Positions 22,133-41,906 of a DNA stretch of 64,000 nucleotides are shown in pieces. Both the position numbers and the translations under genes were made by a program. The notes beneath the pieces were generated by a model. That model did no database searches. It was given only the letters and a program-made list of their open reading frames with translations, and had not been told where the DNA came from. Each line of letters starts with the position of its first letter. Within the stretch, counting starts at the first letter, position 1. Origin of the DNA: Patescibacteria group bacterium (GTDB lineage Bacteria; Patescibacteriota; Minisyncoccia; Phycocordibacterales; XYD1-FULL-46-19); the NCBI GenBank assembly GCA_048617235.1, contig JBMCHT010000003.1, positions 81,958-145,957 of the forward strand. Reading direction: 5' to 3'.

Positions 22133-22501
22133 TTATCTTGAAGTCCCGACCATAAAAATCAAAGGGGCTTTGGTTTTACGATCACAATCACTACCTCTAA
22201 TACAAATAGAAAACCCTTCATGGGTGCCCAAAACTTGAGCTCCTTCTTTAATCTGACGATATTGATACAAAATACTGACCCCCGGCTGGTAAATAACCTC
22301 ATCCGGCAACCAAGAAGCAGCCGGTTTAAGAGTTAATAAAAAATTATTACTGCAACTGCAATATTTAAGCTCAGTTATTAGACCTCCGAAGGGTTTATTA
22401 CTTACTGCAAACACTAATCCGGTCCCTAAACCCAAAATAATAAATAATAAAAATAAAATTTTAAAAACATTCCGAGATAACATAAATATAATTTTAATCA
22501 A
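22133..22501 (-). CDS. small secreted or membrane Cys-containing hypothetical protein
   Basis: N-terminal hydrophobic helix. Overlaps the upstream ORF by 8 nt (operon). Confidence 0.4.
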   Translation of the reverse strand: MIKIIFMLSRNVFKILFLLFIILGLGTGLVFAVSNKPFGGLITELKYCSCSNNFLLTLKPAASWLPDEVIYQPGVSILYQYRQIKEGAQVLGTHEGFSICIRGSDCDRKTKAPLIFMVGTSR

Positions 22502-27100: not shown

Positions 27101-27396
27101 TGAATATACCGAGTGTAAATGCCGGGGATGAATTCATTATTTCTTTATTCCCGCATGTTACTAATTATCAAATAAACATAACAGCTTCTAACGGTAATGC
27201 TTCAGATTTGATAAATGAAATAAGAACTGAAATAGATGATATTATAAATAATGAAACTGGAATTTTAAAGAAGAATTTAAGCTTGTTGAATATTGAATAT
27301 AAAACAAATTCAGTAACTCTTTCTCCTAAATTAAAATATGATATAAAATGTCTAGATAATAGCGGTTCAACTATTCAAGATGGTCTAACTTTATAA
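24115..27396 (+). CDS. giant acidic secreted/anchored protein (1093 aa) with Asp/Gly-rich degenerate repeats
   Basis: N-terminal TM/signal. Extremely acidic central region with repeats LDxLTENL and GD(I/V)xGD-type motifs. Cys-poor C-terminal domain. Confidence 0.55.
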   Translation: MKNKFSQTIIFSLIILVILIPLLGFGLKKLSAFQTQAIPEPGFGAGYDYQTEVDNPRADDISQQAAEEARALQERTENNASASQAAASRLAELQQQDLEQCTAEVTGQTPPQGPMADTVNDSVEGAINNHVQENFQDTFTEEMDDTLPQETQNLVEESFPQELDNATQEILQDNPQIELLDADDPASVIENGSLDFNRAELDEAADAYQNYFGDNWREDILDEENRASFTENLFEETVQSVTPEVFEQVLTDNLPQVLENTMESAFSETTESIFNPDQLKEVFTDRNFQNNLEGGLSTVASDTVNGALSGLENLNESDLRETLGLPERPRAVRPVSQYDEDGYFTGYTYETGGYEPGTNLNLDDIREVTTQSMEDNISQNITDNLLKDENLTNLSTNMMESMNLNSDQIVGEMLDGLSMDGLTENLNLDSLTENLDLDSLNFDQAFGDILNDFDIDSVLDGFDIDNILGDFGGIGDIVGDFSNQITDMAGDVFGDITGDMMGDLNDLGIGLDLDSLPGPLNDIAGDITGGLDGSLPGAGGFGGGGNYVPVKEVDGPLLSTTQEIDATTKRMEQLLIQICTYQKSIQRIQTAFEQKEFMEDVQLRQSASDEVERYRQEVFDLTNRGYDPDGQGAEQPLYVTNLDSHLQQVKNETRSVYLNHFGHTENAFAEQVTNAIMNNPDVPALPESTITVDEYERFFTGQIADAEEYRRIAREVYNPYLPNTPQRAVDMHSALYRQNLQEKQDQAELEFNTGQGYLPVRECIEHTDDGSACLHWETITPASQIGEQIADVLSYRQEVYTNPQAGDIVPGSSPSEAELRNFRPSASGGSSSGSSGGSNSASMPGSSMPGSFDINQVVDMLSQFMSGLEGSDPDSSPSTASLAMAKEIIDDQNQAVISWSGEDVNSCQTDNNWISGNQFTMTGSGGMQSFFDHFIITKDEGEGLPNAGQSTIDLPVSLDVRFEVIRASGSNAGERRTITGGVTTDIIDDIYQEVTLNIPSVNAGDEFIISLFPHVTNYQINITASNGNASDLINEIRTEIDDIINNETGILKKNLSLLNIEYKTNSVTLSPKLKYDIKCLDNSGSTIQDGLTL

Positions 27397-27404: not shown

Positions 27405-30400
27405 ATGCTTATAACTCATAAAAAAAAGTTTATTATTACATCTTTATTGATTGTTTTTTTTGTTGTTTTATTGATTAATCCTAAAGAAACAATAGCCACT
27501 GAAGAAGAATTTTCAGATAGATATGAAAATTGTGTTAATTCCCTCGTCGATACGAGCAGGCCTCCTGATGATGATTTAGAGTCACAAATAAACTGGCTGA
27601 AAGAGCGATCTGCTTTCTATTTGGAAAAAAGTTTTGAAATTGAACCACAATTAGAAGAAATGAGAGAAAATTCTGATAATACTTTCCTAAGGCCTACTTT
27701 TGTTTGTGCTTTTGATACTGATGGCTTATGTGATTACGAGCCCAGAGATTTTTTAAACGCATCAGTTGAAACCATAGAAGGAACATTATCAAATTCTTAT
27801 ATAATATCTTTTCCTAATGGAGACTCTATAGAAACTTCCGGTAGATACTGGAATTACAACGAGTGGTTCCAAAAATCTTCAGATTATCAAAGTCTTAGAG
27901 CAGAAAGAAGTCGTTTTAATGCTCTTTCGTCCGAAATACTTCAATGTGTAAGCTTGGGAGAAACTGCTTTAAATTATGAAAATTTAAATCCAGAAGAAAT
28001 AGATGAAACAGAAGAAGAATTAATTGAACTGGAAAATTATGCTGAACAAGAAAGGAGAGAATCTTCAAACACAAGCAGGGCTCAAATAGAAAGACTGGAT
28101 GCATCTAGATTAGATATTGATAAAAGTTGGTTTTGTTTAGGGCACGGTAATATCATCGGTTTTGATTTTGGAGATCCTGTTTGTTATATAGAGCTTTTCA
28201 CTATGCTATTTGAAGTTATAAGAGATATGGTGGTTAGCATTTTAACAGAAATAATATCTCCTTTTTACGATACGGTTATCCATCATTCAGTGATAGAAAT
28301 AACCCAATTTTTAGACACTGATTCTGCAAATCAAGTCTGGATAGCTGTTAGAGATGTCGCTAATTTATTTTTTATATTTATTCTTTTATATGTTTCTTTT
28401 AGTATAACCTTACAAATAGGAGGGGCTAATGACAAACGGCTTATAGCTATGGTTATTATCATAGCTTTATTAATTAATTTTAGTGCCGCCCTTACCAAAG
28501 TAGCTATAGACGCCTCTAATATAACAGCTTTACATTTTTTGGAACAAATAGATGAAGATGGGGAGGTAGGAACAAGACTGCAGATAACCAGTAAATTTAG
28601 TACATTAAGCGCAAGTCAACTACCAGGTGGAGATAATCAAATAGAAAGAGAAGCTGCTTGGAAAAGATTAATGGCTACTGTTGCTAATATAGTCTTCGCT
28701 TTTATTTTAATAATTGCTCTTTTAGTGGGCTCTTTCTTATATTTATGGAGAGTTGTCATATTTTTAATATTAATTGTAGCTTCTCCTTTGGCGTTTGTAG
28801 GCTTTGCTTTACCTAAAATAAAGACCATGATTACAGACAAATGGCTGTCTCAACTGTTTTGTTGGTGTGCTTTCGCTCCAATATCTATGTTCTTTTTGTG
28901 GGCTAGTTTTACTTTAGCAGAAGGCACTAATCTGGAAGGGGGTTTTTTTGAATTAATGATTCATTTCTTTATTATTTGCGCCCTGGTTATCGGCTCGTTT
29001 GTTATGTCTCAAATATTATCCTGTTCCGGATCAAGCTCCATAGCCGGACGAGGAGTTGGAGCATTAAATTATACCAAAGACAAAGCTGCAACCGGCTTAA
29101 AACATGGAGCAGGAAAAACTGCCAAGTGGGCTGCTACCAGTGATACCAAAAAATATGGAGGTAAACTGGCTAATCGCATAGGTGGATTAAAAGACACAGG
29201 CTATGATATGCAGAAATCAGACAGTAGAACCAAGCGTGTATTAGGGCGAGCCTCAGAGTGGGTAGGTGATAAAGGTCAAAAAATAGCAGATAAAACAGGC
29301 CAAACTAAAGTACAAGAAAGCAAAGTAAAAAGAGCAACAGAAGTAATAAATAAAGGAGAAAATGCTGATGAAAAAGCTCGGACCTTTAATAGGTTGAACA
29401 AAATTACAGGAGCCGTCGGAATGAATAGATTAACTCAAGCCGATTGGGTGGCCAATCAATCTGGACAACAATTAGCTGAACTTGCCAATTCTATTAAAGA
29501 CCTAAAAACAAAAGAAGATTTTAGAGGAAACTTGGATAAATTACTGGCTCGAGATCCGGAAAAGAAAAAAGAATTTTTGGAAGCTTTACCTAAAGAGCAA
29601 GAAAAATCGGCTACTAAAGTTAAACCGGGAGAATTAAATAAAGAAACCGAAATTGAAAGAAATAGAGAAGCCGGTCAACAACGAGCTGCGAATGTTCTAG
29701 CTTTATCAAATGATAAAAAAGGAGAAGAGCCCAGCGAGAGACAAAAAGTTTTAGCAGAAATAGACACTGAAACCTTAGCCAATATGTTAAATAGTACCGA
29801 CAATGAAGCAGATTACCAACAACTTATAGATGATTTAAATCAGACATTAGATCCTCAAAAAATGGAGAGAGTTTTCGAAGAGATGGCTAAAGATTTAAGT
29901 AAAACTTTAAATGCTATTTCTTTTATTTCTGATCCGAATAAAAAAGAAGAATTAATGACAACAGAACTGGGAAGAGTTGGTAAAATGGATATCAATTACC
30001 AACAACAAGCCTATAACAAAACAGATGAATTAACCAGAGATGGCATCAGAGAAGCTGTCATCAGTGGAATGGCCGTAGCTGGAGTCAATATAAAAGATTT
30101 AGACCAAAAACTTCCAAAAGACAAACAAGAAAAAGAAAAAACCATAGAAAGATTAGAAGCTGAGGATAACCTTAAAAATTCAGATGCAAATACTTCCGAA
30201 GAAGATATTAAGAAATATTTAGATACCTTAACCACAGACATGAAAGTAAACTTACCGGATGAAGTTCTTAAAAAAGAAAGAGTGGTAGCCAATTTAGATA
30301 TAGCCACTATTAATAAATTAACTCAAGCTTCAAAAACACCTGATTTATTGAGAGAAATTGGTAAGGTGGTAGAAGAATTAAAAAGAAAAAAGGATCCTAA

Positions 30401-30698
30401 AGGTGATGCTTTATGGGGATCTATGAAGAGTATGACAACACAATCAATGTTTTTCAGTCACAACGATACAGGAAACACCGGTGGAGAATCCAGCCAAACA
30501 TCTAACCCACCCTCCCAAACATCTAACCAATCTACCTTAAAAGAAGATCCAAATTCATTTGAAGCAACTAAAAGAGAAAAACAAGAAAAAAGCGGAGTAT
30601 CAGAAGAAGATGAAGAAGAAGCAAATCAAAGGTTGAAAAAACTCCGAAGAGAAATGAGAAATAATAATAATAATAATAATAATAATAATCAACAATAA
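27405..30698 (+). CDS. VirB6/TrbL-like polytopic membrane protein with a large N-terminal extracytoplasmic domain and a long charged C-terminal tail ending in poly-Asn
   Basis: Signal/TM at the N-terminus. Block of ~6-7 hydrophobic helices at aa ~300-540. ~550-aa K/E-rich hydrophilic tail. Architecture resembles PrgH/TcpH/VirB6-type proteins. Placed 2 genes upstream of the PrgI-like and VirB4-like genes. Confidence 0.45.
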   Translation: MLITHKKKFIITSLLIVFFVVLLINPKETIATEEEFSDRYENCVNSLVDTSRPPDDDLESQINWLKERSAFYLEKSFEIEPQLEEMRENSDNTFLRPTFVCAFDTDGLCDYEPRDFLNASVETIEGTLSNSYIISFPNGDSIETSGRYWNYNEWFQKSSDYQSLRAERSRFNALSSEILQCVSLGETALNYENLNPEEIDETEEELIELENYAEQERRESSNTSRAQIERLDASRLDIDKSWFCLGHGNIIGFDFGDPVCYIELFTMLFEVIRDMVVSILTEIISPFYDTVIHHSVIEITQFLDTDSANQVWIAVRDVANLFFIFILLYVSFSITLQIGGANDKRLIAMVIIIALLINFSAALTKVAIDASNITALHFLEQIDEDGEVGTRLQITSKFSTLSASQLPGGDNQIEREAAWKRLMATVANIVFAFILIIALLVGSFLYLWRVVIFLILIVASPLAFVGFALPKIKTMITDKWLSQLFCWCAFAPISMFFLWASFTLAEGTNLEGGFFELMIHFFIICALVIGSFVMSQILSCSGSSSIAGRGVGALNYTKDKAATGLKHGAGKTAKWAATSDTKKYGGKLANRIGGLKDTGYDMQKSDSRTKRVLGRASEWVGDKGQKIADKTGQTKVQESKVKRATEVINKGENADEKARTFNRLNKITGAVGMNRLTQADWVANQSGQQLAELANSIKDLKTKEDFRGNLDKLLARDPEKKKEFLEALPKEQEKSATKVKPGELNKETEIERNREAGQQRAANVLALSNDKKGEEPSERQKVLAEIDTETLANMLNSTDNEADYQQLIDDLNQTLDPQKMERVFEEMAKDLSKTLNAISFISDPNKKEELMTTELGRVGKMDINYQQQAYNKTDELTRDGIREAVISGMAVAGVNIKDLDQKLPKDKQEKEKTIERLEAEDNLKNSDANTSEEDIKKYLDTLTTDMKVNLPDEVLKKERVVANLDIATINKLTQASKTPDLLREIGKVVEELKRKKDPKGDALWGSMKSMTTQSMFFSHNDTGNTGGESSQTSNPPSQTSNQSTLKEDPNSFEATKREKQEKSGVSEEDEEEANQRLKKLRREMRNNNNNNNNNNQQ
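30661..30690 (+). repeat. (AAT)10 microsatellite encoding the C-terminal poly-Asn of the VirB6-like protein
   Basis: aataataataataataataataataataat read directly. Confidence 0.9.
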
Positions 30699-30700
30699 AC

Positions 30701-31195
30701 ATGCCTTTAACCCCCGAAATAATTCAAGAAAAAACCAAAGACTTACCGGAAAAAGTCAAAGAGGCTTTCTTTTCTTCAGAAACCAGTAAAACTATTCGTG
30801 AAGTAGGTCAAAAAAACAATCTTCATATAGATCAAATAGGAATATTGGCAGATTTAACCGGACAAGTTTTATTAGGAATATTGCCGGTAAGTAGTTTTAC
30901 TCGACATCTTTCCAATTACTTGCATATAGATACCGAAACGGCTAAATTTATGGCCATTGAAATAAATGAAAAGATATTTTTACCTATCAGAGAAGATTTA
31001 AAGAAAGTTAATATTTCTAAAAAAGAAGACACTGAGCCGGAAAAGAAAAAAGCGGATTCGCCACCGCCTCCACCAACTACGGAAAAAACCGAAGAAAAAG
31101 AAACTATTAAAAAAGATTTGTATCAAGACAGAAAATCCGAATTAAGTGGTAGTATAGATAATGTAGATGATCCTTATCGAGAACCAATAGAATAA
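30701..31195 (+). CDS. hypothetical hydrophilic protein with a Pro-rich segment, in the T4SS-like operon
   Basis: Tight spacing (2 nt after the upstream stop). No TM segment. PPPPTTEKTEEKE. Confidence 0.4.
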   Translation: MPLTPEIIQEKTKDLPEKVKEAFFSSETSKTIREVGQKNNLHIDQIGILADLTGQVLLGILPVSSFTRHLSNYLHIDTETAKFMAIEINEKIFLPIREDLKKVNISKKEDTEPEKKKADSPPPPPTTEKTEEKETIKKDLYQDRKSELSGSIDNVDDPYREPIE

Positions 31196-31199: not shown

Positions 31200-31628
31200 A
31201 TGCGCTTTCAAGTTCCACAATTTATAGATATTGAAGATAAAATTTTCGGACCTTTATCTTTTAAGCAATTTATTTACATAGCCGGGGGAGCCGGGGGAGC
31301 TTATTTATCTTTTCAAATACTACCCCCTATTATTAATATATTGTTTGTAGTTGTATTCGGTGGTTTGGGTCTGGCTTTGGCTTTTTATAAAGTAAACGAG
31401 CGTCCTTTAATCTTAATAATTCAATCAGCTATCAAACATTTTTTAAACAGTAAATTGTATTTATGGGAAAAGAAAAAACCCTCTGTTCCTCAAAAACAAG
31501 AAAAAGAGGAAGGGTCTGAAGTAAAACAAGAAATTTTACCTAAAATGTCCAAAAGTAAATTAGAAGATTTATCTTGGAGTTTAGATGTTAAACAAAAACC
31601 TGAAGAACCGGAGAATGAAGCCCTGTAA
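31200..31628 (+). CDS. PrgI-family (VirB3-like) small membrane protein
   Basis: N-terminus RFQVPQFIDIEDKIFGPLSFKQFIYI follows the PrgI pattern (KVP-x-DL-x-EDRI-x-x-LS-x-RQ), followed by two TM helices. It lies immediately upstream of the VirB4 homolog. Confidence 0.5.
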   Translation: MRFQVPQFIDIEDKIFGPLSFKQFIYIAGGAGGAYLSFQILPPIINILFVVVFGGLGLALAFYKVNERPLILIIQSAIKHFLNSKLYLWEKKKPSVPQKQEKEEGSEVKQEILPKMSKSKLEDLSWSLDVKQKPEEPENEAL

Positions 31629-31664: not shown

Positions 31665-32339
31665 TTGTGTTATAATAAGATTATGTTGAATATTAATTCC
31701 AAACCAACTCAAGATTTTTTATCCATAAAAGCTATTAGAAATGACTTGGTTATTATGAAAGATAATAGTTATCGTGCTGTTTTACTAACCACCGCCACTA
31801 ACTTTGCTTTAAAATCTGATGATGAACAAATTGCTATTATCTCTCAGTATCAGAACTTTCTCAATTCTTTGGATTTTTCCATACAAATTTTTATTCAATC
31901 TCGAAGATTAGATATTAATCCCTATTTAATGACCATTAAAAAATTACAAAAAAACCAGACTAATGAATTACTAAAAATACAAACCAAAGAATATATAGAT
32001 TTTATTAAAACTTTCGTAGAAAACTCCAATATTATGTCTAAAAGTTTTTTTGTGGTTATTCCATATTATAGTACAGTTGCTTCCGATAGCGGATCTTTTT
32101 TAAGTAACACTCTCCCTTTTTTAAAACAAAAAGATGAAGGCAAGAAAAAAATGGAAACCGAAGAATATCAAGCGCAAGTAGAACAAAGAATAGGAGTAGT
32201 GGAGCAAGGTTTATCTAGAACCGGTATTAAATCAAGCCGTTTAGGTACAGAGGAATTAATAGAATTATATTTCAAAATATTTAATCCCGGAGAACAAGGA
32301 TTACCTTCTATGGATAATTTGCAACAAGCTAAAAAGTAA
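31665..32339 (+). CDS. VirB4/TrbE-family ATPase, N-terminal segment (split from the ATPase body by a frame change)
   Basis: IKAIRNDLVIMKDNSYRAVLLTTATNFALKSDDEQIAIISQYQNFLNSLDFSIQIFIQSRRLD matches the start of Gram-positive-type VirB4/PrgJ/TrsE. Ends TAA 32337-32339, immediately after an A5 run. Confidence 0.5.
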   Translation: MCYNKIMLNINSKPTQDFLSIKAIRNDLVIMKDNSYRAVLLTTATNFALKSDDEQIAIISQYQNFLNSLDFSIQIFIQSRRLDINPYLMTIKKLQKNQTNELLKIQTKEYIDFIKTFVENSNIMSKSFFVVIPYYSTVASDSGSFLSNTLPFLKQKDEGKKKMETEEYQAQVEQRIGVVEQGLSRTGIKSSRLGTEELIELYFKIFNPGEQGLPSMDNLQQAKK

Positions 32340-32344
32340 GCAAT

Positions 32345-34153
32345 ATGTGGCCTTTTACTAACAAAACAAAAGAAAAAGAGTTAACCGCTTTCTTGCCGAC
32401 AGATATTTATCAAGCCGGGATAATGGAGTTAAAAGATATTATTGCTCCATCGGCTTTAAAAATAAACAGCAACAATTTAAATCTGGGAGATAAAATTGCT
32501 AAAACTTTTTTTGTTATTTCTTACCCTCGCTTTTTAAATGAAGGTTGGTTTTCTCCTATTATTAATATGGATAGAGTTTTTGATATCTCTATTTTTATCC
32601 ATCCTATAGATTCGGCGGTAGCTTTGAAACAATTACAAAAAAAATTAGCCGAAGTTCAAAGCCAAATAAATACAAAAATGGAAAAAGGCTTTGTTCGTGA
32701 TCCAATTTTAGATACCTCTCAACAAGATATTGAATCCCTAAGAGACCAATTACAACAAGCTGAAGAAAAAATATTCAATGTTGGAGTCTACATCACTATT
32801 TATGGTCAAAATAAACAAGACTTATTTGAAGCCGAGTCTGAAATAAAATCAACCTTAGATTCTCAATTAATATATATTAAACCGGCTTTATTCCAACAAG
32901 GAGAAGGTTTTAGAAGTGTTATTCCTTTAGCTCAAGATGAACTAAAAATACATACTAAACTAAATTCCAATCCTTTATCTAGTTTATTTCCTTTTATTTC
33001 TTTTGACTTAACTTCTAATAAAGGAATTTTATTCGGCACCAACCGACACAACTCTTCTTTAGTGTTATTTGATCGCTTTTCCTTAGCAAACTATAACTCA
33101 GTCACCTTTGCCAAGTCCGGTAGTGGTAAGTCTTACACCACTAAATTGGAAATCTTAAGAAGTTTAATGTATGACACCGATGTTATTGTGATAGACCCCG
33201 AAAGAGAATATGAATTTTTATCTGAAGCTGTCGGAGGTAGATATTTTAATATTTCCTTAACTTCCGAACACCATATTAATCCTTTCGATTTACCACCACC
33301 CGGAGAAGATGAATCACCGGGAGATATTTTAAGAGGTAATATAATCAACTTAGTTGGTTTATTTAGAATAATGCTTGGCGGTTTAAATTCTGAAGAAGAT
33401 TCAATTATAGACAAAGCTATCACTGAAACTTATGCTTTAAAAGACATCACTTCCGATAATGATTTTTCTAACAAACCAACTCCATTATTATCCGACCTGG
33501 AATTAGTTTTGGCCGGTATGGAAGGAGGAGAGTCTTTGGCTCAAAGATTAACCAAATATACTCAAGGTACCTGGTCGGGCTTTCTAAACAAACCTACCAA
33601 TGTGGATATTAATAAAAATTTTGTGGTATTTTCCGTTAGAGATATGGAAGACGAATTAAAACCGGCGGTTATGTATATTGTAATGCACCATATCTGGAAT
33701 ACAGTCAGGCGAAATATTAGAAAACGTCTTTTAGTGGTTGATGAAGCCTGGTGGATGATGAAATCCGAGGATACGGCTTCTTTTTTGTACTCTTTAGTTA
33801 AAAGAGGTCGAAAATATTATTTAGGCACCGCCACTATCACTCAAGATGTAGGAGATTTCTTGCGCTCACCTTACGGTACCCCGATTATTACCAACTCTTC
33901 TTTGTATTTTTTATTAAAACAGTCTCCGGCTTCCATAGATTTGGTTCAAAAAACTTTCAATTTAACTGATGAAGAAAAATATCTTTTATTGGAATCAAAT
34001 ATTGGAGAGGGGATATTCTTTGCCGGTTTAAAAAGAGTGGCTCTTAAAGTTATTGCCTCTTATACTGAAGATCAAATAATAACTTCCGACCCTTCAGAAT
34101 TATTAAATATTAAAAAAGCCAAACAGGAATTGGAAATGGATGCAGAAAAATAA
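32345..34153 (+). CDS. VirB4/TrbE/CagE-family type IV secretion ATPase (C-terminal 602 aa)
   Basis: Walker A FAKSGSGKSYTT, Walker B LLVVDEAWWMM (the DEAW signature of VirB4/TraC). Conserved VirB4 N-proximal block IAPSALKIN...FVISYPRF. Confidence 0.7.
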   Translation: MWPFTNKTKEKELTAFLPTDIYQAGIMELKDIIAPSALKINSNNLNLGDKIAKTFFVISYPRFLNEGWFSPIINMDRVFDISIFIHPIDSAVALKQLQKKLAEVQSQINTKMEKGFVRDPILDTSQQDIESLRDQLQQAEEKIFNVGVYITIYGQNKQDLFEAESEIKSTLDSQLIYIKPALFQQGEGFRSVIPLAQDELKIHTKLNSNPLSSLFPFISFDLTSNKGILFGTNRHNSSLVLFDRFSLANYNSVTFAKSGSGKSYTTKLEILRSLMYDTDVIVIDPEREYEFLSEAVGGRYFNISLTSEHHINPFDLPPPGEDESPGDILRGNIINLVGLFRIMLGGLNSEEDSIIDKAITETYALKDITSDNDFSNKPTPLLSDLELVLAGMEGGESLAQRLTKYTQGTWSGFLNKPTNVDINKNFVVFSVRDMEDELKPAVMYIVMHHIWNTVRRNIRKRLLVVDEAWWMMKSEDTASFLYSLVKRGRKYYLGTATITQDVGDFLRSPYGTPIITNSSLYFLLKQSPASIDLVQKTFNLTDEEKYLLLESNIGEGIFFAGLKRVALKVIASYTEDQIITSDPSELLNIKKAKQELEMDAEK

Positions 34154-34174
34154 AAAATATTTTAAAATAATAAT

Positions 34175-35164
34175 ATGTCTTCTTTTTTAAAAACTCTTCT
34201 CCTTGCAATAATTTTGGTTTCTCCTGTTGTAATTGAGGCCAGATTATTGGATTCTTCAGGAGGGAGCATAGTTCCTGTTTTTAAACCGAAAAATCCCGGA
34301 CCCAATCAAGAAATAATAATAACTCTGGATGGTTACGGTTATAATATAAATCGTAGTTTAATTAGATGGGAAGAAAACAATAATGTATTAAAAGAAGGGG
34401 TAGGAGAAAAACAACTTAATTTTACCACTGGAGCAATCGGCTCTAAACATTTCATTAATGTAACTATTTTAACCGATACCGGCCGACAAGTTACCGGTCA
34501 AATATTATTGGATCCGGCTGAAGTAGATATGGTTTGGGAAGGGTTGACTGTTAATCGCCCAAATTATCAAGGAGGTAATTTAGCTTTAGATGGGGGAGAG
34601 GTAAGAGTGGTGGCTATACCTCAGATGACTGATTCTCAAGGTCAATTAATGGCAAATGATGAATTATTATATGAATGGCGAATTGATGGCCAAAAAGTAA
34701 TAAACATAGATAATAAACAAAAATATTTAGATGTTCGTTTAAGAATAGACAGGCCAATAAGAGTTAGGGTAACCGTTACCAACCCGGTAACCGAAACTAA
34801 AACTAGTAATTTACTTATTTTAAGATCCAAACAAAAACCGGTTTTAGCGATTTATGAAGTTAAACCTTTAATGGGACCTATCTACAACCGAGGAATAAGA
34901 AATATTTTTGAAATAGATTCACCAGAAACTGTTTTAAAAGCCGAGCTTTATCACTTACCACCTGATATTAGTAACAAAATAAGATTTAACTGGCTAATGG
35001 AAGATAAAAAGATAGCCAGCTCCGGCTCTGGTGGGGAATTATTAGGAATAGAAGCTCCTGCCACCTTAAGTGAATCTATACCCATAACAGTTGAAGCCCT
35101 CTTTCCGGAAGGAAATAATATTACAAAAAGTTTTATGATTAAACCCCAAGTAATAGATTTTTAA
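34175..35164 (+). CDS. secreted hypothetical protein (signal peptide, beta-rich)
   Basis: Signal peptide MSSFLKTLLLAIILVSPVVIEA. No recognisable motifs. Confidence 0.4.
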   Translation: MSSFLKTLLLAIILVSPVVIEARLLDSSGGSIVPVFKPKNPGPNQEIIITLDGYGYNINRSLIRWEENNNVLKEGVGEKQLNFTTGAIGSKHFINVTILTDTGRQVTGQILLDPAEVDMVWEGLTVNRPNYQGGNLALDGGEVRVVAIPQMTDSQGQLMANDELLYEWRIDGQKVINIDNKQKYLDVRLRIDRPIRVRVTVTNPVTETKTSNLLILRSKQKPVLAIYEVKPLMGPIYNRGIRNIFEIDSPETVLKAELYHLPPDISNKIRFNWLMEDKKIASSGSGGELLGIEAPATLSESIPITVEALFPEGNNITKSFMIKPQVIDF

Positions 35165-35167
35165 GTT

Positions 35168-36019
35168 ATGAATTTTTTATCTACAGAAAAAGCTTTGGCT
35201 CAAGTGGTTAGTAGATACCAATTATTAGAACAGACAATTGTCGGTGAGACGGTTTCTAGCTTTCCTGAATATTTGAGTCAAATTTATACTGTTTTTTTAA
35301 CTGTAGTTACTGTTTTAGCGGTTTTAATTTTAGTTTATGGTGGGATTGAATATTCAATTAGTGAAGCTTTTAGTACTAAAGAAAATGCTAAAAAAAGAAT
35401 GCAATCAGCTTTATTTGGTTTACTTTTGGCTTTATCTTCGGCTTTACTCTTACAAACTATTAATCCGGAATTATTGAATCTGGAAATTGAAATGGAAGCC
35501 TTGGATCCGGTAGGGAGTGGACAGTCTGCAGTTACAGACGGTAGTAATCCTGAATTTCAATCAGAACCTAACCCTCAGGCTCCAATAGAATCGTCAGGAG
35601 ATATACAAAAAGATATTTATAATGCAGCCAAAGCATATGAAAATAGTAGTACCAGTGCAGGACCAGGAAATGGCGTCGTAGCTTGCGCTTGGGCAGTAAA
35701 TAATGTTATCACAAAAGCCGGCTACCAATCGGTTAATGGTGATGCAGTTAAAAGCATGAAATCAGTATTAGACGGTAGTAGAGGGCAAGAAATAAATAAA
35801 AGTGAAGCTAGGCCTGGTGATATTGCTATAGTAACCGATGCTCCTTCAAAAGAGAGTGGCAAATTAGGAAATCATGTTGGGATATGTACAGATAATGGAT
35901 GTAATCGTGTTTTATCCAATTCAAGCAGTAGAGCTCAGTTTGATTACACAGGTGGATTTGGTTTTCCTGAAGCTTATAATGAAGGTGGTAATGAGTATGT
36001 TTATAGATTAAATAATTAA
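35168..36019 (+). CDS. membrane-anchored (helical hairpin) CHAP/NlpC-P60-like peptidoglycan hydrolase; VirB1-like functional slot
   Basis: Two hydrophobic helices (IYTVFLTVVTVLAVLILVYGG; ALFGLLLALSSALLLQTI). C-terminal domain with candidate catalytic Cys (VVACAWAVNNV) and His (GNHVGICTDNG) spaced as in CHAP domains. Confidence 0.5.
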   Translation: MNFLSTEKALAQVVSRYQLLEQTIVGETVSSFPEYLSQIYTVFLTVVTVLAVLILVYGGIEYSISEAFSTKENAKKRMQSALFGLLLALSSALLLQTINPELLNLEIEMEALDPVGSGQSAVTDGSNPEFQSEPNPQAPIESSGDIQKDIYNAAKAYENSSTSAGPGNGVVACAWAVNNVITKAGYQSVNGDAVKSMKSVLDGSRGQEINKSEARPGDIAIVTDAPSKESGKLGNHVGICTDNGCNRVLSNSSSRAQFDYTGGFGFPEAYNEGGNEYVYRLNN

Positions 36020-36030
36020 ATTATTATTTT

Positions 36031-36531
36031 ATGAAAAACCAAAATTATATATATTATATTATACTGGGGATTTTGATTATTGTTGCCGGTATTGTCTTAG
36101 GTATAATAAATAACTCAAAAAAAGAACCGGAAATAATTACTCCTCCGGAAACTACAAACAATAATGATATAGAAACCGACAATAATGGACAAGAAATAGT
36201 TGAATTAAATAAAGATGAAAAAGAAGAAATGGTTCAACAAATTAAAGAACAAATTAAAAAAGATTTTAATTTGGAAAATAATATAGAAGAAGAAAACAAT
36301 CAAGATGATTTTATTTTAGAAGAGACTTTTATTTCCTTCCCTTATGCTGTACAAATTTGGACGACAGAACATACAGGAGGATTTGTTGTTCTAAAATTTT
36401 CTGAAACAAATAATGAGTGGACTTCTTTAGATTCAGACGGTGGAGCTCCATATACTCAATATTTAATGGACTTTTATAATATACCACAAAAAAATGCCGA
36501 AGATTTGGTTAATAAAATTTATAATTTATAA
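36031..36531 (+). CDS. hypothetical N-terminally anchored membrane protein
   Basis: TM helix YIYYIILGILIIVAGIVLGII. Acidic linker. Confidence 0.4.
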   Translation: MKNQNYIYYIILGILIIVAGIVLGIINNSKKEPEIITPPETTNNNDIETDNNGQEIVELNKDEKEEMVQQIKEQIKKDFNLENNIEEENNQDDFILEETFISFPYAVQIWTTEHTGGFVVLKFSETNNEWTSLDSDGGAPYTQYLMDFYNIPQKNAEDLVNKIYNL

Positions 36532-36534
36532 AAT

Positions 36535-37842
36535 ATGAAAATAACAACCGGGGATATATTAAAATATTTAATAATCACTATTATTTTCTTAATGCTTTTT
36601 GTTTTAGGATTTTTAATGTCCGGCTTATTAACTAAAAACGGAGAGAAACAAGAAACTAAAAAAGAAAATCTTTTCCCGGAAGGAGGAGAATCTGTAAATA
36701 CTCAAACCGACACCCCTTCTTTTAATAATATATCAACAATGGAAGATTCTGATGATTTAAATGGAGAAGATCCAGAACTTGAAGAAGATGATCTTGTTTC
36801 TAATCAAATAATCACCTTTAAACCTTTATTAATAGAAGACAAATTATCTGTTTTATATATAAGTCAAACTGACGGACATATTTATTTAGTAAAAAATATA
36901 AACTTAATAAAAGATAATAAAATTAACAATCTTGAAAAAATATTAATTTCCAATAAAACTTTTAAAGATATTATTTCCGCTTATTGGGTTATAAATAATA
37001 ATCAAATAACTGCTATATTAAATGATAAAAATAATAGTTATTCTTTAACTTTTAGTTTAAATGATCTTGAAGAAGAAGAAGAAGAAGAAATAGAAAATAA
37101 TAACGAAATAGAGGTTATTAAAAGAAATCTGCCAATAAAAATATTGGAGGTAAAAGATTTGGGAGGACAAATTTTTGTTTTATCTAATCAATTAAGAGAA
37201 GATGATCAAAAAATAACTAATATTAAGGGTACAGTTGGTTATTTAGTAGATTCTGATTTAAATGATTGGCAAACAATTTTTATTTCAGATCATAAAACTT
37301 TAACTCTAAATCCAGGAAAACAAACAAATAATATTTATATTCAAAACAAACCTTCTAATCAATTTCCCAGTTTTCTTTATAGGGTGGATTTAGATACCGG
37401 AGTATTACAAAAAATAATGGGGGATATTTTAGGAGGAGTTTTTTTAGTTAATCCCAATGGCACTAAAGTTTTATATAATGAAAAAACTAACAATTCTTTT
37501 GATTTAAAAATATTTAATTTAAAAAACAAAAACAATAAAAACTTAGGTTTTAAAACTTTGATTGAAAAATGTTTTTGGGTGGATGAATCTAATTTTTATT
37601 GTGCTGCTCCTGAAAATATATACTTAAATAACAACTATCCGGATGTTTGGTATATAGGGGAAATACCAACCGAAGATAGTTTGTTATATAAATATAATTT
37701 AGAACAGGAATCATTTAACACCAGTAGATATTGGAATAATCAAAAAAATGTATTTAATTTAGATATAGATAATCAAAATAATATTTTATTTTATCAAGAT
37801 ATGATGAATAAAAATCTATATTTATTTAATATTTTGTTCTGA
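36535..37842 (+). CDS. hypothetical N-terminally anchored membrane protein with an Asn-rich beta-rich ectodomain
   Basis: TM helix LKYLIITIIFLMLFVLGFLMSGLL. EEEEEEEE stretch. Last gene of the block before yidC (opposite strand). Confidence 0.4.
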   Translation: MKITTGDILKYLIITIIFLMLFVLGFLMSGLLTKNGEKQETKKENLFPEGGESVNTQTDTPSFNNISTMEDSDDLNGEDPELEEDDLVSNQIITFKPLLIEDKLSVLYISQTDGHIYLVKNINLIKDNKINNLEKILISNKTFKDIISAYWVINNNQITAILNDKNNSYSLTFSLNDLEEEEEEEIENNNEIEVIKRNLPIKILEVKDLGGQIFVLSNQLREDDQKITNIKGTVGYLVDSDLNDWQTIFISDHKTLTLNPGKQTNNIYIQNKPSNQFPSFLYRVDLDTGVLQKIMGDILGGVFLVNPNGTKVLYNEKTNNSFDLKIFNLKNKNNKNLGFKTLIEKCFWVDESNFYCAAPENIYLNNNYPDVWYIGEIPTEDSLLYKYNLEQESFNTSRYWNNQKNVFNLDIDNQNNILFYQDMMNKNLYLFNILF

Positions 37843-38574
37843 TTCTACTTGATCTTCCTTTTTCCTCTTAACCATCAAAAACTGACCTAAAGAAAAGACA
37901 TTACTGGTAATCCAATATATACCAACAGCTGCCGGAAAGGTAGTGGCTATAATTCCTATTACCCCGGGTAAAACATAACGCATTTGGGTTTGCATTCCTC
38001 TAACCATATCTTCTTGAAAATTAGGTTTGTTGTCGGATTTTTTAGTTTTAGGTGAAGGTTTAGGTAAAGTTATATTCATTTGTAAATACTGAGAAGCAGC
38101 CACTAAAAAGGCTATTATAAAACTTCTTTGAGTTATATCCAAAAAACCTAAAAGTTGAGTATTAACTACTTCCGGCTGACTAATAAAGCTATAAAGTATA
38201 TCTAAATTTAAATCAAAGCCACGAGAAAAAACAAAAAACATAGATAGAATAATGGGAATTTGAATTAAAGTGACCAAAATCCCACTAAAAGGATTCATAT
38301 TATGTTCTTTATACAACTCCAATATCGCTTCTGCTTGTTTTTGTTTTTCCGCTTTATATTTTTCTTTAATCTTTTTAATTTCTGGCTGAACTAGAGCCAT
38401 TTGTTTTTGGTTATTGATGGTTTTTTGGTAAAGAGGAAAAAGAATAATTCTAACTATTACAGTTAAAAGTATTATAGCCAAACCAACATTAGCCCCCGGT
38501 AAAATACCGGTTAAAAAAACCAAAGCATTATATAAAGGCTCAAATAATATTAAATTAAAAATACTTTTTATCAT
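37822..38574 (-). CDS. yidC: membrane protein insertase YidC (short, Oxa1-like form)
   Basis: ~250 aa with 5 TM helices. Conserved C-terminal YWITSNVFSLGQ motif. Located next to rnpA-rpmH. Confidence 0.8.
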   Translation of the reverse strand: MIKSIFNLILFEPLYNALVFLTGILPGANVGLAIILLTVIVRIILFPLYQKTINNQKQMALVQPEIKKIKEKYKAEKQKQAEAILELYKEHNMNPFSGILVTLIQIPIILSMFFVFSRGFDLNLDILYSFISQPEVVNTQLLGFLDITQRSFIIAFLVAASQYLQMNITLPKPSPKTKKSDNKPNFQEDMVRGMQTQMRYVLPGVIGIIATTFPAAVGIYWITSNVFSLGQFLMVKRKKEDQVESEQNIK

Positions 38575-38578
38575 AAAG

Positions 38579-38917
38579 TTATTCTATTATACCTGATTTT
38601 TCAAAAACCTTAATTATATCTTTTTTTAGATCTTGATAATTAAAATGTTTATGATTGTTTTTAATAAAAATAACCACCCCCAATCCGGGCTTAATTTGAG
38701 AAAAAACTTCAACTACAGCACATTTTACTCTTCTTTTTAATAAAACCCTCTGAGTGGCCTTTTTGAAGCTTTTTGAGGGTACACAAACAGCTACAGCTTT
38801 AGTAGAAGGAGAAATATTAAGGAATTTAATATAAACAAAATCACCGGTTTGTTTATAACCTTCTTTTAATACTTTTTTTATTAAAAAAGGTGTTAATCGG
38901 TATTTTTTAGACAACAT
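38579..38917 (-). CDS. rnpA: ribonuclease P protein component
   Basis: MLSKKYRLT...F..V basic ~112-aa protein. Start ATG overlaps the rpmH stop (TAATG). Canonical rpmH-rnpA arrangement. Confidence 0.75.
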   Translation of the reverse strand: MLSKKYRLTPFLIKKVLKEGYKQTGDFVYIKFLNISPSTKAVAVCVPSKSFKKATQRVLLKRRVKCAVVEVFSQIKPGLGVVIFIKNNHKHFNYQDLKKDIIKVFEKSGIIE

Positions 38918-39051
38918 TAAACACTTAATTTTTTACGGTTTTTTCTCCTTCGTCTTAAAATTACCATCCGACCGGTGGCCTTTTTTTGTCTGGATAAAAA
39001 ACCGTGAGTTTTATTCCTTTTTCTATTTTTTGGTTGGTAGGTTATAGACAT
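38917..39051 (-). CDS. rpmH: 50S ribosomal protein L34 (44 aa; absent from the ORF track because it is <60 aa)
   Basis: Own translation of the minus strand: [44 protein letters not shown] is the canonical L34 pattern (TYQP..RKR...HGF..R......GR.VL..RR.KGRK.L). Confidence 0.85.
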
Positions 39052-39163
39052 TCCGTTAATCTACCATATTATATTTTTTTTTCAAGTTTCTTTTCAAAGA
39101 ATTTGTTTTATAATTTTAAACATATCCACTTGTTATCAACAAAATTAAAGGTTTTTAAGTTGA
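39052..39163. promoter_or_regulatory. rpmH/dnaA divergent spacer with DnaA-box-like sites (ATATCCACT, TGTTATCAACA); candidate oriC segment or dnaA promoter
   Basis: Sites read at 39122-39143. AT-rich. Position between divergently transcribed rpmH and dnaA. Confidence 0.45.
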
Positions 39164-40564
39164 TTGGTTAATATCTTTATAAGTATTATAATATGGCTAT
39201 TATATATGGATTTAAATGAATTATGGCAAAAAACTCTAGTAGATATAGAAAACAATATATCTAAAGCCAGTTTTGGGACTTGGTTTAAAAATACTTCTAT
39301 TGAAAAAATAGAGGATAATATTATTTTTCTTAAAACCCCTAATACTTTTGTAAAAGATTGGTTATTTAATAAATATCATAAATTAATTTTAAAGTCTTTA
39401 AGAAACCATTCTCAAGATATTAGAAATATTGAGTATTTAATAGGTAAAACAGACACTCAAAAACAAGAAGTTAAAATTAAAAAAGAAGAACCTGAAAAAA
39501 CCTTTAATAATCTTGGTTTGAATGATTTATATATTAATAGAGAAAGTAATTTAAACCCTAAATATACTTTTGAAAGTTTTGTGGTTGGATCTTTTAATGA
39601 AGTGGCTTTTGCTGCTGCTCAAGCAGTACTTAAAAACTTAGGAGTAAATTATAATCCTTTATATATTTACGGCACCACCGGAGTGGGGAAGACGCATTTA
39701 ATTCAATCTATTGGTAATAAAATAAAAGAATTAAACCAAGAAAAACAAATTTATTATTTAACTTCTGAAAATTTTACCAATGATTATATAAAATCTGTTC
39801 AAAATAATAAAATTAATATTTTTAAAGAAAAATACAGAAAATATGATTTATTAATAATGGATGATATACAATTCTTCTCCAAAAAAGAAAAAACTCAAGA
39901 AGAATTATTTCATTTATTTAATAGTCTTTATGATAATAATAAACAAATAATATTTTCATCAGATAAACCTCCAAAATATATTACTAACCTTGAAGAAAGA
40001 TTGAGATCTAGATTTGAAGGGGGGATGATTGTAGATATTGGAAGACCGGATTATGAATCCAGAGTAGCTATAATAAAAACTAAAATTAAAGATAAAAACC
40101 ATTTAATTAATGATGATGTTGTTAATTATTTAGCTGAGTGTGTTCAAGATAATATTAGAGAAATAGAAGGGACTTTAAATTCAATTTTCTTTCAAGCTCA
40201 AGCTAAAAAAAGACCTTTATCTTTAAACGAAGTTAAAAATTTAATAAAAGATAGTATAAAACCTAAAAAAGTTATCTCTTATAAAGAAGTTTTAAAAGTA
40301 GTTTCTGAATATTACAATATAAATGAAAAAATTATTCAAGAAAAAACCAGAAAAAAAGAAGTAGTTAAACCAAGACAAATAATAATGTATATATTAAGAG
40401 AAGATTTCAATACTTCTTACCCTTATATTGGGCAACAATTAGGTGGAAGAGATCATACTACTGTTATACACGCTTGTGAAAAAATTAAAAAAGAAATAAA
40501 AGATAATAATAATCTAAACAGAGAAATTGAAGAAATTAGAGATATAATTTATAAAGAAAATTAA
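39164..40564 (+). CDS. dnaA: chromosomal replication initiator DnaA (the likely true start is the ATG at 39206, MDLNELWQ...)
   Basis: AAA+ Walker A GTTGVGKTHL, Walker B LLIMDDIQFF, C-terminal DNA-binding helix QIIMYILRE...IGQQLGGRDHTTVIHACEKI. Confidence 0.95.
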   Translation: MVNIFISIIIWLLYMDLNELWQKTLVDIENNISKASFGTWFKNTSIEKIEDNIIFLKTPNTFVKDWLFNKYHKLILKSLRNHSQDIRNIEYLIGKTDTQKQEVKIKKEEPEKTFNNLGLNDLYINRESNLNPKYTFESFVVGSFNEVAFAAAQAVLKNLGVNYNPLYIYGTTGVGKTHLIQSIGNKIKELNQEKQIYYLTSENFTNDYIKSVQNNKINIFKEKYRKYDLLIMDDIQFFSKKEKTQEELFHLFNSLYDNNKQIIFSSDKPPKYITNLEERLRSRFEGGMIVDIGRPDYESRVAIIKTKIKDKNHLINDDVVNYLAECVQDNIREIEGTLNSIFFQAQAKKRPLSLNEVKNLIKDSIKPKKVISYKEVLKVVSEYYNINEKIIQEKTRKKEVVKPRQIIMYILREDFNTSYPYIGQQLGGRDHTTVIHACEKIKKEIKDNNNLNREIEEIRDIIYKEN

Positions 40565-40808
40565 TGAATAAGTATATGGATAAGTTGTTTAAAATTATCA
40601 ATAAAATGTGTAAAACAATAAAGTTATTAACATTATAAAATAAAAAATTTTAAAAGTTTAAGTTTTAAAGGTTTTATAAAATTACAACAACAATTAATTA
40701 ACAAATTAAAATCTTATTTCAACTTCTAAAATAAAGTTATTTTTAAGTTATCAAGTTATCAACAAGACTAAATATAATAAATAAGTATATATATAATATA
40801 TTAATAAA
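40565..40808. promoter_or_regulatory. dnaA-dnaN intergenic region: candidate oriC with degenerate DnaA boxes (TGGATAAG at 40577; TTATCAATA at ~40595; GTTATCAAGTTATCAACAAG at 40747-40766) and a very AT-rich putative unwinding element (40770-40808)
   Basis: Motifs read directly. 244-bp non-coding, >80% AT. Confidence 0.5.
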
Positions 40809-41906
40809 ATGAATTTTAAAATAAAAACTCAGAATTTAATAAAAGCTCTTCAAAGAGCAGAAAAGACAGTTGGTAAAAATTTTAATTTACCAATACTGTC
40901 TAATGTTTTTATTAAAACATTAAAAGATAAAATAGAAATAAGATCAACTAATTTAGAAATAGGATTGTCTGAATTAATAAAAGCAGAAATTAAAGAAGAA
41001 GGAGAGATAACTATTAAACCGGGAATAATTTTATCTGTTTTAAATCAATTAAAAAATTCTTCAGATTTGGAATTATTTTTAAAAGATAATAATTTACAAA
41101 TTAATGGAGATTTTGGTAAAACAAAAATAAAAACAGAATCAACTGAAGATTTTCCTCAATTACCTAAAATTAATTCTGATAAAATCATTAAAATTAACTT
41201 TAATGATTGGTTTCAAGGTATAAGATCGGTTGTTTTTTCAGCGGCCACCTCAGATATTAAACCGGAAATATCCAGTGTATATATTTATTCCGATAATAAT
41301 AAATTATTTTTCGTTTCCACTGATTCTTTAAGATTGGCCGAAAAAAATATAAATTTTAAAAAAGAAGATGAAATTCCGGGAATTATTATTCCTTATAAAA
41401 ACGCTTTGGAAATTAATCGTATATTTGAAGGTAGTGAAGAAATTAGTTTTAAAAATGATGGTGATAAATTAGAAATTAAAAATAATTTTATAACTTTAAT
41501 ATCTAGAACAATAGAAGGTGTTTATCCTGATTATCGGCAAATTATACCTAAATCTTTTAAAACAGAGATTTATGTAGATAAAACAGAGTTTTTAGATAAA
41601 TTAAAAATAGCCGGTGTTTTTGCTGATAAGTTAAACCATATTAAATTAAATATTAAACCTAAAGATAAATCTTTAATTATAGAGTCAGAAAATCAAGAGG
41701 TGGGAGAGAGTCATTTAGAAATTAAGAGTGAAATAATCGGTGAAGAATTAGAAGTTAGTTATAATTATAGATATATTAATGAGGTTTTTCAGTCTATATT
41801 TAGTGATAAAATTTTTCTAGGTTTTAATGATAAAAATAAACCTTTATTAATTTCCGGTGCTAATGATCCTAGTTTTATTTATTTAGTTATGCCTATAAAC
41901 AAATAA
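40809..41906 (+). CDS. dnaN: DNA polymerase III beta subunit (sliding clamp)
   Basis: 365 aa. Three-domain clamp pattern. Typical start MNFKIKTQNLIKALQ. Position after dnaA. Confidence 0.9.
   Translation: MNFKIKTQNLIKALQRAEKTVGKNFNLPILSNVFIKTLKDKIEIRSTNLEIGLSELIKAEIKEEGEITIKPGIILSVLNQLKNSSDLELFLKDNNLQINGDFGKTKIKTESTEDFPQLPKINSDKIIKINFNDWFQGIRSVVFSAATSDIKPEISSVYIYSDNNKLFFVSTDSLRLAEKNINFKKEDEIPGIIIPYKNALEINRIFEGSEEISFKNDGDKLEIKNNFITLISRTIEGVYPDYRQIIPKSFKTEIYVDKTEFLDKLKIAGVFADKLNHIKLNIKPKDKSLIIESENQEVGESHLEIKSEIIGEELEVSYNYRYINEVFQSIFSDKIFLGFNDKNKPLLISGANDPSFIYLVMPINK

Follow-up and report, generated by a model that had tools for sequence, protein, structure and literature searches.

The closest described counterparts of the protein treated here are the cell-wall hydrolases PrgK (pCF10), TraG (pIP501), TcpG (pCW3) and CwlT (ICEBs1), which are encoded together with the VirB4, VirB3 and VirB6-like components of type IV secretion systems (T4SSs) (PMC12102498, PMC12857230). 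All known Gram-positive VirB1 homologs are membrane-anchored and have extracellular enzyme domains (PMC12857230). In Patescibacteria VirB2-like pilins are found in most genomes and VirB1 in few, most VirB2 carriers are without VirB1, and it was concluded that pilus biogenesis may not need a VirB1-type hydrolase (PMC12102498). The only experimentally studied Patescibacteria T4SS locus is that of Southlakia epibionticum ML1, in which hydrolase and short pilins are separate proteins. Peptidase and lysozyme homologs encoded next to virB4 are essential in this organism (PMC12102498), and the essential pilin array has been described as the most puzzling feature of these T4SSs (PMC12857230). Here we analyse a 64-kb stretch of DNA from a Patescibacteria group bacterium (contig JBMCHT010000003.1, positions 81,958 to 145,957; called the window in the following), in which one gene joins a VirB2-like pilin module and a predicted cysteine hydrolase of the NlpC/P60-CHAP superfamily in a single polypeptide. 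In the literature searched we found no description of such a VirB2-hydrolase fusion, nor of the family of small proteins encoded directly behind it, for which we use the name partner.

An earlier note on this DNA, made from the letters alone, had described an open reading frame (ORF) at 35168..36019, two N-terminal hydrophobic helices without a signal peptide, and the motifs VVACAWAVNNV (with a Cys) and GNHVGICTDNG (with a His). All of this was recovered: the ORF (plus strand, ATG start, 283 amino acids (aa)) agrees exactly, both motifs are present in its translation with C173 and H236, and the hydropathy profile has the two expected maxima and nothing comparable at the start of the protein. 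Judging from sequence comparison the ORF is clearly a real gene and not a chance ORF, because it has 56 homologs at E<=1e-3 in a word-indexed search, because an exhaustive search yields 472 clusters (at 50% identity) with the C-terminal hydrolase domain, and because C173, H236 and N251 are invariant. The GenBank entry for exactly this protein is MFW5853515.1, 'MAG: pilin [Patescibacteria group bacterium]' (MAG, metagenome-assembled genome), on a 336-kb contig. As the label says only 'pilin', the catalytic half is invisible to database users. The parts of the gene and the gene directly downstream are the following (TM, transmembrane segment; pLDDT, predicted local distance difference test; pTM, predicted template modelling score).

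35168..36019, plus strand: fusion gene, VirB2-like pilin plus predicted NlpC/P60-CHAP-superfamily cysteine hydrolase, 283 aa, ATG start
35168..35278, plus strand: N-terminal tail, residues 1-37, amphipathic helix, net charge -2
35252..35458, plus strand: match to Pfam T4SS_pilin (PF18895), residues 29-97, with TM1 at ~38-62, the loop SISEAFSTKENAKKRM and TM2 at ~79-98
35462..35602, plus strand: linker, residues 99-145 (47 residues), disordered, pLDDT <50
35603..36016, plus strand: predicted papain-like cysteine hydrolase domain, residues 146-283, domain model with pLDDT 95.2 and pTM 0.89
35684..35686, plus strand: codon of C173, the predicted nucleophile, which opens helix 173-183, conserved in 166/166 aligned domains
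35819..35821, plus strand: codon of D218 in a G-D motif that starts strand 219-227, G217 in 166/166 and D218 in 165/166
35873..35875, plus strand: codon of H236, the predicted general base, on strand 233-240, 166/166
35885..35902, plus strand: C240...C245 pair (HVGICTDNGC), covarying across the family
35915..35929, plus strand: S250-N251-S252-S253-S254 signature, with S250, N251 and S253 in 166/166
36031..36531, plus strand: partner gene, 166 aa, MFW5853516.1, 'hypothetical protein ACOCU8_02735', beginning 11 nt past the fusion stop codon

By its sequence the N-terminal part, which had been taken for a hairpin anchor, is a genuine VirB2-like T4SS pilin module. The T4SS_pilin match scores 31.6 bits against a gathering cut-off of 26.6 and covers positions 2-70 of the 71 positions of the profile; the same family is matched in 22 of 31 aligned homologs, and in four of the 31 TrbC/VirB2 is matched as well. 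The two hydrophobic segments (residues ~38-62 and ~79-98) reach 19-residue Kyte-Doolittle maxima of 2.66 and 1.90, respectively, and the structure model predicts helices for residues 32-64 and 71-98. Between TM1 and TM2 the loop SISEAFSTKENAKKRM carries four positive and two negative charges and is predicted to be cytoplasmic. The anchor had been called VirB2-like or PrgK-like; the first of these descriptions stands and the second has to be given up, as the N-terminus is a hairpin of the VirB2 type. The anchor of PrgK is a single helix. Matches to pilin-like NCBIfam models (families from Mycoplasma integrative and conjugative elements) were weak and far under the cut-offs, and we did not use them.

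The C-terminal domain is predicted to be, very probably, a peptidoglycan peptidase or amidase. In an alignment of 166 domains the residues C173, H236, N251, S250, S253, G217 and G238 are 100% conserved, so that an alignment of the Cys and His positions, which the earlier note had named as a check, finds both invariant together with N251. In the model the Cys is placed at the N-terminus of a helix, the His on a strand and the Asn on the next strand, which is a papain-like arrangement, and N251 (strand 248-252) is likely the third residue of the triad. The G-D motif of D218 is the counterpart of 'GD(I/L)V' in NlpC/P60 proteins, and in the alignments with CwlO and MepS the order G-D ... H-V-G parallels the NlpC/P60 order 'GDL(V/I)F ... 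HVGIY'. The two cysteines C240 and C245 occur together in 136 of the aligned domains, both are missing in 20, and 10 are mixed. Because of this covariation they likely form a disulfide, which hence would place the domain outside of the cytoplasm.

The Pfam families named for this domain are matched unevenly. The window protein reaches 20.2 bits with CHAP (PF05257) at full length and 22.2 bits with the domain alone, at a cut-off of 26, and the match extends over residues 167-242 and thereby spans the Cys and the His; NlpC/P60 (PF00877) gave no match from the window protein in the Pfam scan. The expected CHAP match is thus there but sub-threshold, and the NlpC/P60 match did not appear. Among the 31 homologs CHAP is matched by 17 and NlpC/P60 by seven, and a set of 40 diverse domain sequences includes 14 with CHAP (best 3.1e-7), 12 with NlpC/P60 (best 8.5e-8) and two with Amidase_5. 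With family matches of this kind and with the invariant Cys, His and Asn, the proposal of a CHAP-like hydrolase is supported. When the single sequence was searched against the PDB sequences nothing matched, and only profiles gave matches: a domain-only profile run against solved structures found the DL-endopeptidase CwlO (NlpC/P60) at 1.2e-5, the endolysin Lys2972 at 3.5e-4 and MepS/Spr at 3e-3. In the Lys2972 alignment the ACAW of the family falls on the Cys motif of the lysin and the HVGI of the family on the HVGV of the lysin, and the CwlO alignment covers the His-Asn half of the triad.

A Foldseek search of the PDB with the domain alone gave mainly clan-CA enzymes, among them the type VI peptidoglycan amidase Tse1 (probability 0.97, TM-score 0.52) and further the pseudomurein endoisopeptidase PeiR, staphopain and the CHAP domain of phi812. 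In BFVD, which holds predicted viral structures, the best match is the lysin domain of Synechococcus phage S-CAM7 (E 5.6e-7, TM-score 0.74), followed by peptidoglycan hydrolases, CHAP proteins, tail lysozymes and Lysin A. A search with the full two-domain model was noisy, with unrelated helical proteins drawn in by the hairpin, and was set aside in favour of the domain alone. Because fold and triad fit the superfamily while the window protein misses both Pfam models, the domain is a divergent, unmodelled NlpC/P60-CHAP branch, which lies outside both Pfam families as they are defined and has its own S-N-S-S-S signature. Elsewhere the same domain is found C-terminal to SLT, PG_binding_1 and PG_binding_3 domains (P0193) or to a GH19 domain. 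P0175 (1240 aa) has it C-terminal to an nSTAND1 NTPase domain (E 9e-97), an unexpected pairing for a wall hydrolase. For the fusion itself Pfam gives no match to a glycosidase domain, and there is no spare sequence in it to hold one.

Concerning the topology, residues 1-30 of the fusion contain no hydrophobic core of a signal peptide (the 19-residue Kyte-Doolittle maximum over the first 25 window centres of the scan is 0.36). Nearly all other members of the family begin with a classical signal peptide, for example MKKYFSTFALVLLFVGMPLLAFA|QA; only the fusion and the 80%-identical P0002, both of which start with MNFL(S/F)TEKALAQV (residues 1-14, 35168..35210), are without one. The N-terminal tail (...EKALAQV) looks like a degenerate remnant of a signal peptide, with a cleavage-site-like end and no hydrophobic core. 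A stop codon lies 3 nt before the ATG, and therefore a longer start is impossible. With the signal peptide absent and a longer start excluded, membrane insertion would have to use TM1 as a reverse signal-anchor. According to the positive-inside rule, which is an established principle, a basic loop is cytoplasmic. Because of this charge bias, the covarying Cys pair and the signal peptides of the homologs, we infer a hairpin with both ends outside, as in the VirB2 topology, and a predicted hydrolase that faces the wall. The linker behind TM2 contains 10 acidic and no basic residues, and in the family its length varies from 30 to 204 aa (median 60), with a composition rich in G, S, T and P.

Comparing the fusion with PrgK, TraG, TcpG and CwlT, the common features are the genetic setting with VirB4, VirB3 and VirB6-like genes, the membrane tether and a peptidase of the CHAP-NlpC/P60 superfamily, whose extracellular placement is predicted in the case of the fusion. 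However, in the four known proteins a glycosidase (SLT, lysozyme or glucosaminidase) accompanies the peptidase, and a simple TM or lipoprotein anchor holds them, whereas the fusion comprises the peptidase only, is much smaller, and has a complete VirB2-like pilin module in place of the anchor; its small size and its hairpin fusion had been correctly recognized before. Further differences are that the fusion misses the Pfam cut-offs, carries the S-N-S-S-S signature and has a dedicated conserved partner gene. The SLT plus CHAP-like layout of PrgK and TraG (pIP501) is that of P0193. With VirB2/TrbC/TraA pilins and with T4SS_pilin arrays such as SEML1_0014-0019 of S. epibionticum the fusion shares the Pfam family, the hairpin with a basic loop and the setting in a T4SS locus or array. 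But pilins of the SEML1_0014-0019 type have ~100-190 aa and are annotated with pilin domains only, whereas the fusion has in addition the 47-aa linker and the 138-aa enzyme, and lacks the signal peptide. SEML1_0006 of S. epibionticum ML1 is likewise a Patescibacteria T4SS-locus protein with a domain of the 'cysteine proteinases' fold; it is, however, a separate multi-domain protein with two lysozyme-like domains plus the peptidase and without a pilin, and the fusion is one polypeptide without a glycosidase.

Two other groups of enzymes have to be considered. The effector-immunity pairs of peptidoglycan amidases, Tse1-Tsi1 (type VI) and X-Tfe/X-Tfi (Xanthomonas T4SS), resemble the locus in the NlpC/P60-class fold and in a next gene that encodes a small, envelope-located, non-enzymatic protein. 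However, there is no sequence kinship with those pairs, the hydrolase is covalently linked to a pilin instead of being a secreted effector, and the partner resembles no known immunity family. Among phage lysins (CHAP/Amidase_5/NlpC-P60) the S-CAM7 lysin is the best structural match, and Lys2972 (8tw1) is the only solved protein aligned over both the Cys and the His motifs; however, the identity is ~23% or less and the locus contains nothing phage-like. Phage lysins act from within or from the virion.

We retrieved 192 proteins that contain the hydrolase domain, and 95 of them have the pilin module as well. Full-length matches in species-representative genomes are restricted to Patescibacteria (Paceibacterota, Saccharibacteria, Nomurabacteria, Adlerbacteria and Minisyncoccia), whereas Proteobacteria, cyanobacteria and Myxococcales have the hydrolase domain without the pilin; free-standing proteins of 150-200 aa with this domain occur in other bacteria. 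By these sequence comparisons the pilin-hydrolase fusion is a recurrent Patescibacteria family. We compared 32 other loci including their flanks, which reach at most 10 kb to either side and are shorter where the contig ends. In L001, L003, L006, L009, L012 and L014 the fusion is located at or near the head (first or second) of arrays of 2-4 short T4SS_pilin genes.

The partner protein consists of an N-terminal TM anchor, an acidic linker, which is variable in the family, and a C-terminal domain of ~70 aa. Of the 21 fusion loci, 20 have a match to the partner hidden Markov model (HMM) as the next gene downstream, the exception being L007, and the start codon of the partner is found 0-14 nt past the end of the fusion coding sequence. 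In 22 out of 23 Patescibacteria loci the hydrolase-domain gene is followed by the partner, to which one cyanobacterial locus has to be added (window, L001-L006, L008-L010, L012-L021, L023, L025 and L026). Two of these loci lack the pilin: in L015 the gene before the partner encodes a Saccharibacteria protein of 724 aa that has a signal peptide and no TM hairpin, and in L021, a cyanobacterial MAG, it encodes a soluble hydrolase-domain protein. Therefore the partner tracks the hydrolase domain and not the pilin. Twelve loci have a hydrolase-domain gene but no pilin module, and in the other 10 of these the partner was not detected. Members of the partner family have 137-286 aa, and a long form (~275-290 aa) has an extra C-terminal domain. 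The only invariant residues are G, W, P, A and L, within the pattern Y-A-L-Q-x-W ... G-G-E-A-L-L ... W ... G-G-G ... G-V-P ... A-E-x-L, and searches of Pfam, of PDB sequences and of homolog names for the identity of the partner came back empty. From its sequence the partner appears to be a new, unnamed family with a non-enzymatic-looking domain. Such a domain, in the compartment of a wall hydrolase and coupled to it in translation, is what would be expected of an inhibitor, an immunity protein or an adaptor.

The fusion is the second gene after VirB4 in a block of 11 co-directional genes (23354 to 37842), which are separated from each other by 2-36 nt. A T4SS-like block had been proposed around the fusion, and this is borne out by a PrgI/VirB3-like protein, a TrsD-like protein that resembles an N-terminal VirB4 piece, and VirB4 itself. 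The members of the block other than the fusion and its partner, and the further genes of the region mentioned below, are:

23354..24082, plus strand: 242-aa protein without family match, first gene of the block
24115..27396, plus strand: 1093-aa secreted protein, very acidic by its sequence, without family match
27405..30698, plus strand: 1097-aa polytopic membrane protein without family match, 6 or more hydrophobic segments, resembling VirB6 in position and topology only
30701..31195, plus strand: 164-aa protein without family match, member of the block
31200..31628, plus strand: PrgI family (VirB3-like) membrane protein, by family match
31665..32339, plus strand: TrsD-like protein, 224 aa, TTG start, weak TraC_F_IV match
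32345..34153, plus strand: VirB4-like ATPase, 602 aa, NCBIfam CD1110 family (E 1.7e-111), Pfam TraG P-loop
34175..35164, plus strand: 329-aa protein, secreted by its sequence, no family assigned, between VirB4 and the fusion
36535..37842, plus strand: 435-aa membrane-anchored protein, no family assigned, with a homolog (E 6e-16) behind the fusion gene in L007
13938..14906, minus strand: LysM-LysM-M23 peptidase, beside the VirD4-like gene
15175..17544, minus strand: homolog of VirD4/TrwB-like coupling proteins, ~15 kb upstream of virB4
42181..44724, minus strand: class A penicillin-binding protein (PBP), after dnaN

VirB4 looks split: the ORF at 32345..34153 covers only the positions 173-733 of the CD1110-family profile, and the TrsD-like protein at 31665..32339 looks like the detached N-terminal part. 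In the 1097-aa membrane protein the C-terminal half is long and charged and has a poly-Asn run at its end. Beyond the block (37822..41906) yidC and rnpA follow on the minus strand, and then dnaA and dnaN. As the T4SS block adjoins yidC-rnpA-dnaA-dnaN, it is origin-proximal, a placement that has been reported for some Patescibacteria (PMC12102498). In L007, where the fusion is 31-35% identical, the same order of fusion, 435-aa homolog, yidC, rnpA, dnaA, dnaN and PBP is found. The VirD4-like gene and the LysM-M23 gene form a pair on the opposite strand, roughly 6.5-10 kb before 24115. From their sequences they could be the type IV coupling protein and a second wall hydrolase of the same system. 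No relaxase was found among the scanned window proteins. Although the earlier note was right about the hydrolase superfamily, its comparison with conjugative systems can be followed only in part: the T4SS is of the chromosomal, origin-proximal Patescibacteria type rather than demonstrably conjugative.

In our opinion the fusion is most likely the wall-opening enzyme of this T4SS or pilus, with the pilin module bringing it into place and the partner holding it in check, and we give this reading a probability of about 0.5. The hairpin would insert with both ends outside, so that the enzyme faces the cell wall. Through its pilin module the enzyme would join the pool of pilins in the membrane and reach the VirB4/VirB6 assembly site, where it would cleave peptidoglycan, either in the peptide stems or at the amide bond, and make a local opening for the pilus or channel, a task equivalent to that of VirB1, PrgK, TraG, TcpG or CwlT elsewhere. 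The outward non-enzymatic domain of the partner would bind the hydrolase and restrain or direct it, and the own wall would be cut only at the machine. Such a wall enzyme built into a pilin would be a testable answer to the missing VirB1 in Patescibacteria, as the fusion may explain how the wall is breached with no separate enzyme of the customary kind, and it agrees with the membrane tether of monoderm T4SS hydrolases (PMC12857230). The pilin-array puzzle becomes more accessible as well, since the fusion predicts a destination and a target for the enzyme.

Several observations weigh against this interpretation. The window protein stays below the Pfam cut-off for CHAP and has no NlpC/P60 match of its own, and the Foldseek E-values against solved structures are weak, all being >1e-3. 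By its sequence the fusion has no glycosidase domain, unlike the characterised hydrolases of monoderm T4SSs, and the window encodes another wall hydrolase, the LysM-M23 peptidase at 13938..14906. Since the window protein has no signal peptide, the charge bias is the one argument that remains for its own topology with both ends outside, and the role of the partner as inhibitor, immunity protein or adaptor is purely one that we infer. A single TM helix is enough as an anchor in PrgK or TraG; that a complete pilin module has been kept although one helix suffices therefore hints at more than anchoring. Finally, tblastn found no VirB4 in the fetched flanks of the 32 other loci. Direct adjacency to VirB4 is therefore specific to this lineage, and we dropped the statement that the family is always part of a T4SS block; the setting is better described as a T4SS block in this window and as pilin arrays elsewhere.

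The completeness of the pilin module leads to another destination for the same enzyme. The pilin module might polymerise so that the fusion becomes part of the T4SS pilus, where it would probably be a minor component among short pilins, with the hydrolase on the surface or the tip, away from the producer, cutting the wall of a host bacterium that has the epibiont attached to it and with the partner as an immunity protein that guards the wall of the producer. In F-type VirB2 pilins both termini are exposed on the pilus exterior, and the X-T4SS of Xanthomonas secretes peptidoglycan hydrolases that are paired with immunity proteins. In favour of such a host-directed pilus are a full pilin module, beyond a mere anchor, conserved in 95 of the 192 domain proteins, the position of the fusion as first or second gene in arrays of 2-4 short pilin genes, and the best fold match among solved enzymes, which is the antibacterial type VI effector Tse1. 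The tightly coupled, non-enzymatic-looking partner of the same compartment, which is found even without a pilin, corresponds to an effector-immunity layout; on the other hand, this partner was not detected in 10 of the 12 pilin-less hydrolase-domain loci. T4SS and pilin genes are indispensable when S. epibionticum grows as an epibiont (PMC10633639), and a pilus as conduit to the host has been speculated about, but a pilus has never been observed in any Patescibacterium (PMC12857230). A domain of 15 kDa on each subunit would crowd a VirB2-type filament, and nothing points to a host or to the wall chemistry of a host. Moreover, HMMs built from the family detected no further pilin or hydrolase paralogs in the 64-kb window even at E<=10, although the same pilin HMM does recover short pilins in other loci. 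As the fusion is the only pilin detected in the window, a mixed pilus cannot be assumed here. Altogether we consider a host-directed enzyme on the pilus rather doubtful. The full picture, in which a Patescibacteria pilus with an enzyme as part of its pilin drills into the host wall while a membrane-anchored immunity protein silences the enzyme in the pilin pool of the producer, would be a little more doubtful still. If the enzyme were indeed directed at a host, the Patescibacteria T4SS would gain its first molecular effector; an enzyme-bearing pilus would represent a new mode of effector delivery, in which the enzyme is a pilus subunit rather than a secreted substrate, and would supply a mechanism behind the need for T4SS and pilin genes in epibiotic growth.

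In another explanation the linker, which is long, disordered and variable (30-204 aa), could be cut after membrane insertion, so that a mature short pilin is parted from a soluble hydrolase that is set free, and the fusion would then serve only co-expression and co-export. Processing of this kind has precedents, as VirB1 is processed to VirB1*, TrbC is trimmed C-terminally and C-terminal processing is established for some VirB2-family pilins, and the same domain exists as a free-standing protein (150-200 aa) in other bacteria. However, we saw no conserved cleavage motif in the linker, a freed enzyme would be lost from a cell without an outer membrane, and monoderm T4SS hydrolases are tethered as a rule (PMC12857230). 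Such a precursor seems improbable to us. Even less credit is due to a function apart from the secretion machine, either as a protein-processing protease, for example for the maturation of pilins or T4SS substrates, or as a housekeeping wall hydrolase that is linked to the T4SS incidentally. Papain-like folds do include many proteases, and staphopain, AvrRpt2 and C39-like proteins are among the Foldseek matches; in addition, the homolog loci outside this lineage are without VirB4 in the fetched flanks. But the nearest relatives in sequence and fold are peptidoglycan enzymes, the other fusion partners of the domain (SLT, GH19, PG-binding) are directed at peptidoglycan, and the fusion to a T4SS pilin and the position in pilin arrays are conserved and not incidental, so that we regard this explanation as very unlikely.

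Some minor observations from the window and from the compared loci can be added. The ORF at 34175..35164 and the fusion ORF share a reading frame and are separated only by a TAA and one codon (GTT; 35162..35170). Read-through, or a longer ORF starting from 34175..35164, was considered and rejected: the TAA is no known recoded stop, the C-terminus of the upstream protein is non-hydrophobic and P0002 begins at the same Met. We therefore treat the shared frame as a coincidence, the sequence giving no sign of read-through. Just upstream of the T4SS block, at 22494..23291 on the minus strand, a 265-aa protein with a PG_binding_1 domain is encoded, which has no family match elsewhere in its sequence. 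A PilB/GspE-type ATPase (T2SSE, E 1e-115) at 47401..49146 on the minus strand indicates that type IV pilus genes are present in the same window.

In L002, L004, L005 and L008 the fusion is found 2-3 genes after another long (331-349 aa) T4SS_pilin protein, with an N-terminal T4SS_pilin match and ~200 C-terminal aa without assignment:

L002, 8403..9410: long T4SS_pilin protein
L004, 7902..8894: long T4SS_pilin protein
L005, 8391..9440: long T4SS_pilin protein
L008, 8178..9248: long T4SS_pilin protein

Going by these sequences, it may be a more general feature of Patescibacteria that pilins carry a cargo domain at the C-terminus. Beside the long T4SS_pilin genes there are genes for proteins of 180-195 aa, which share the extra domain of the long form of the partner.

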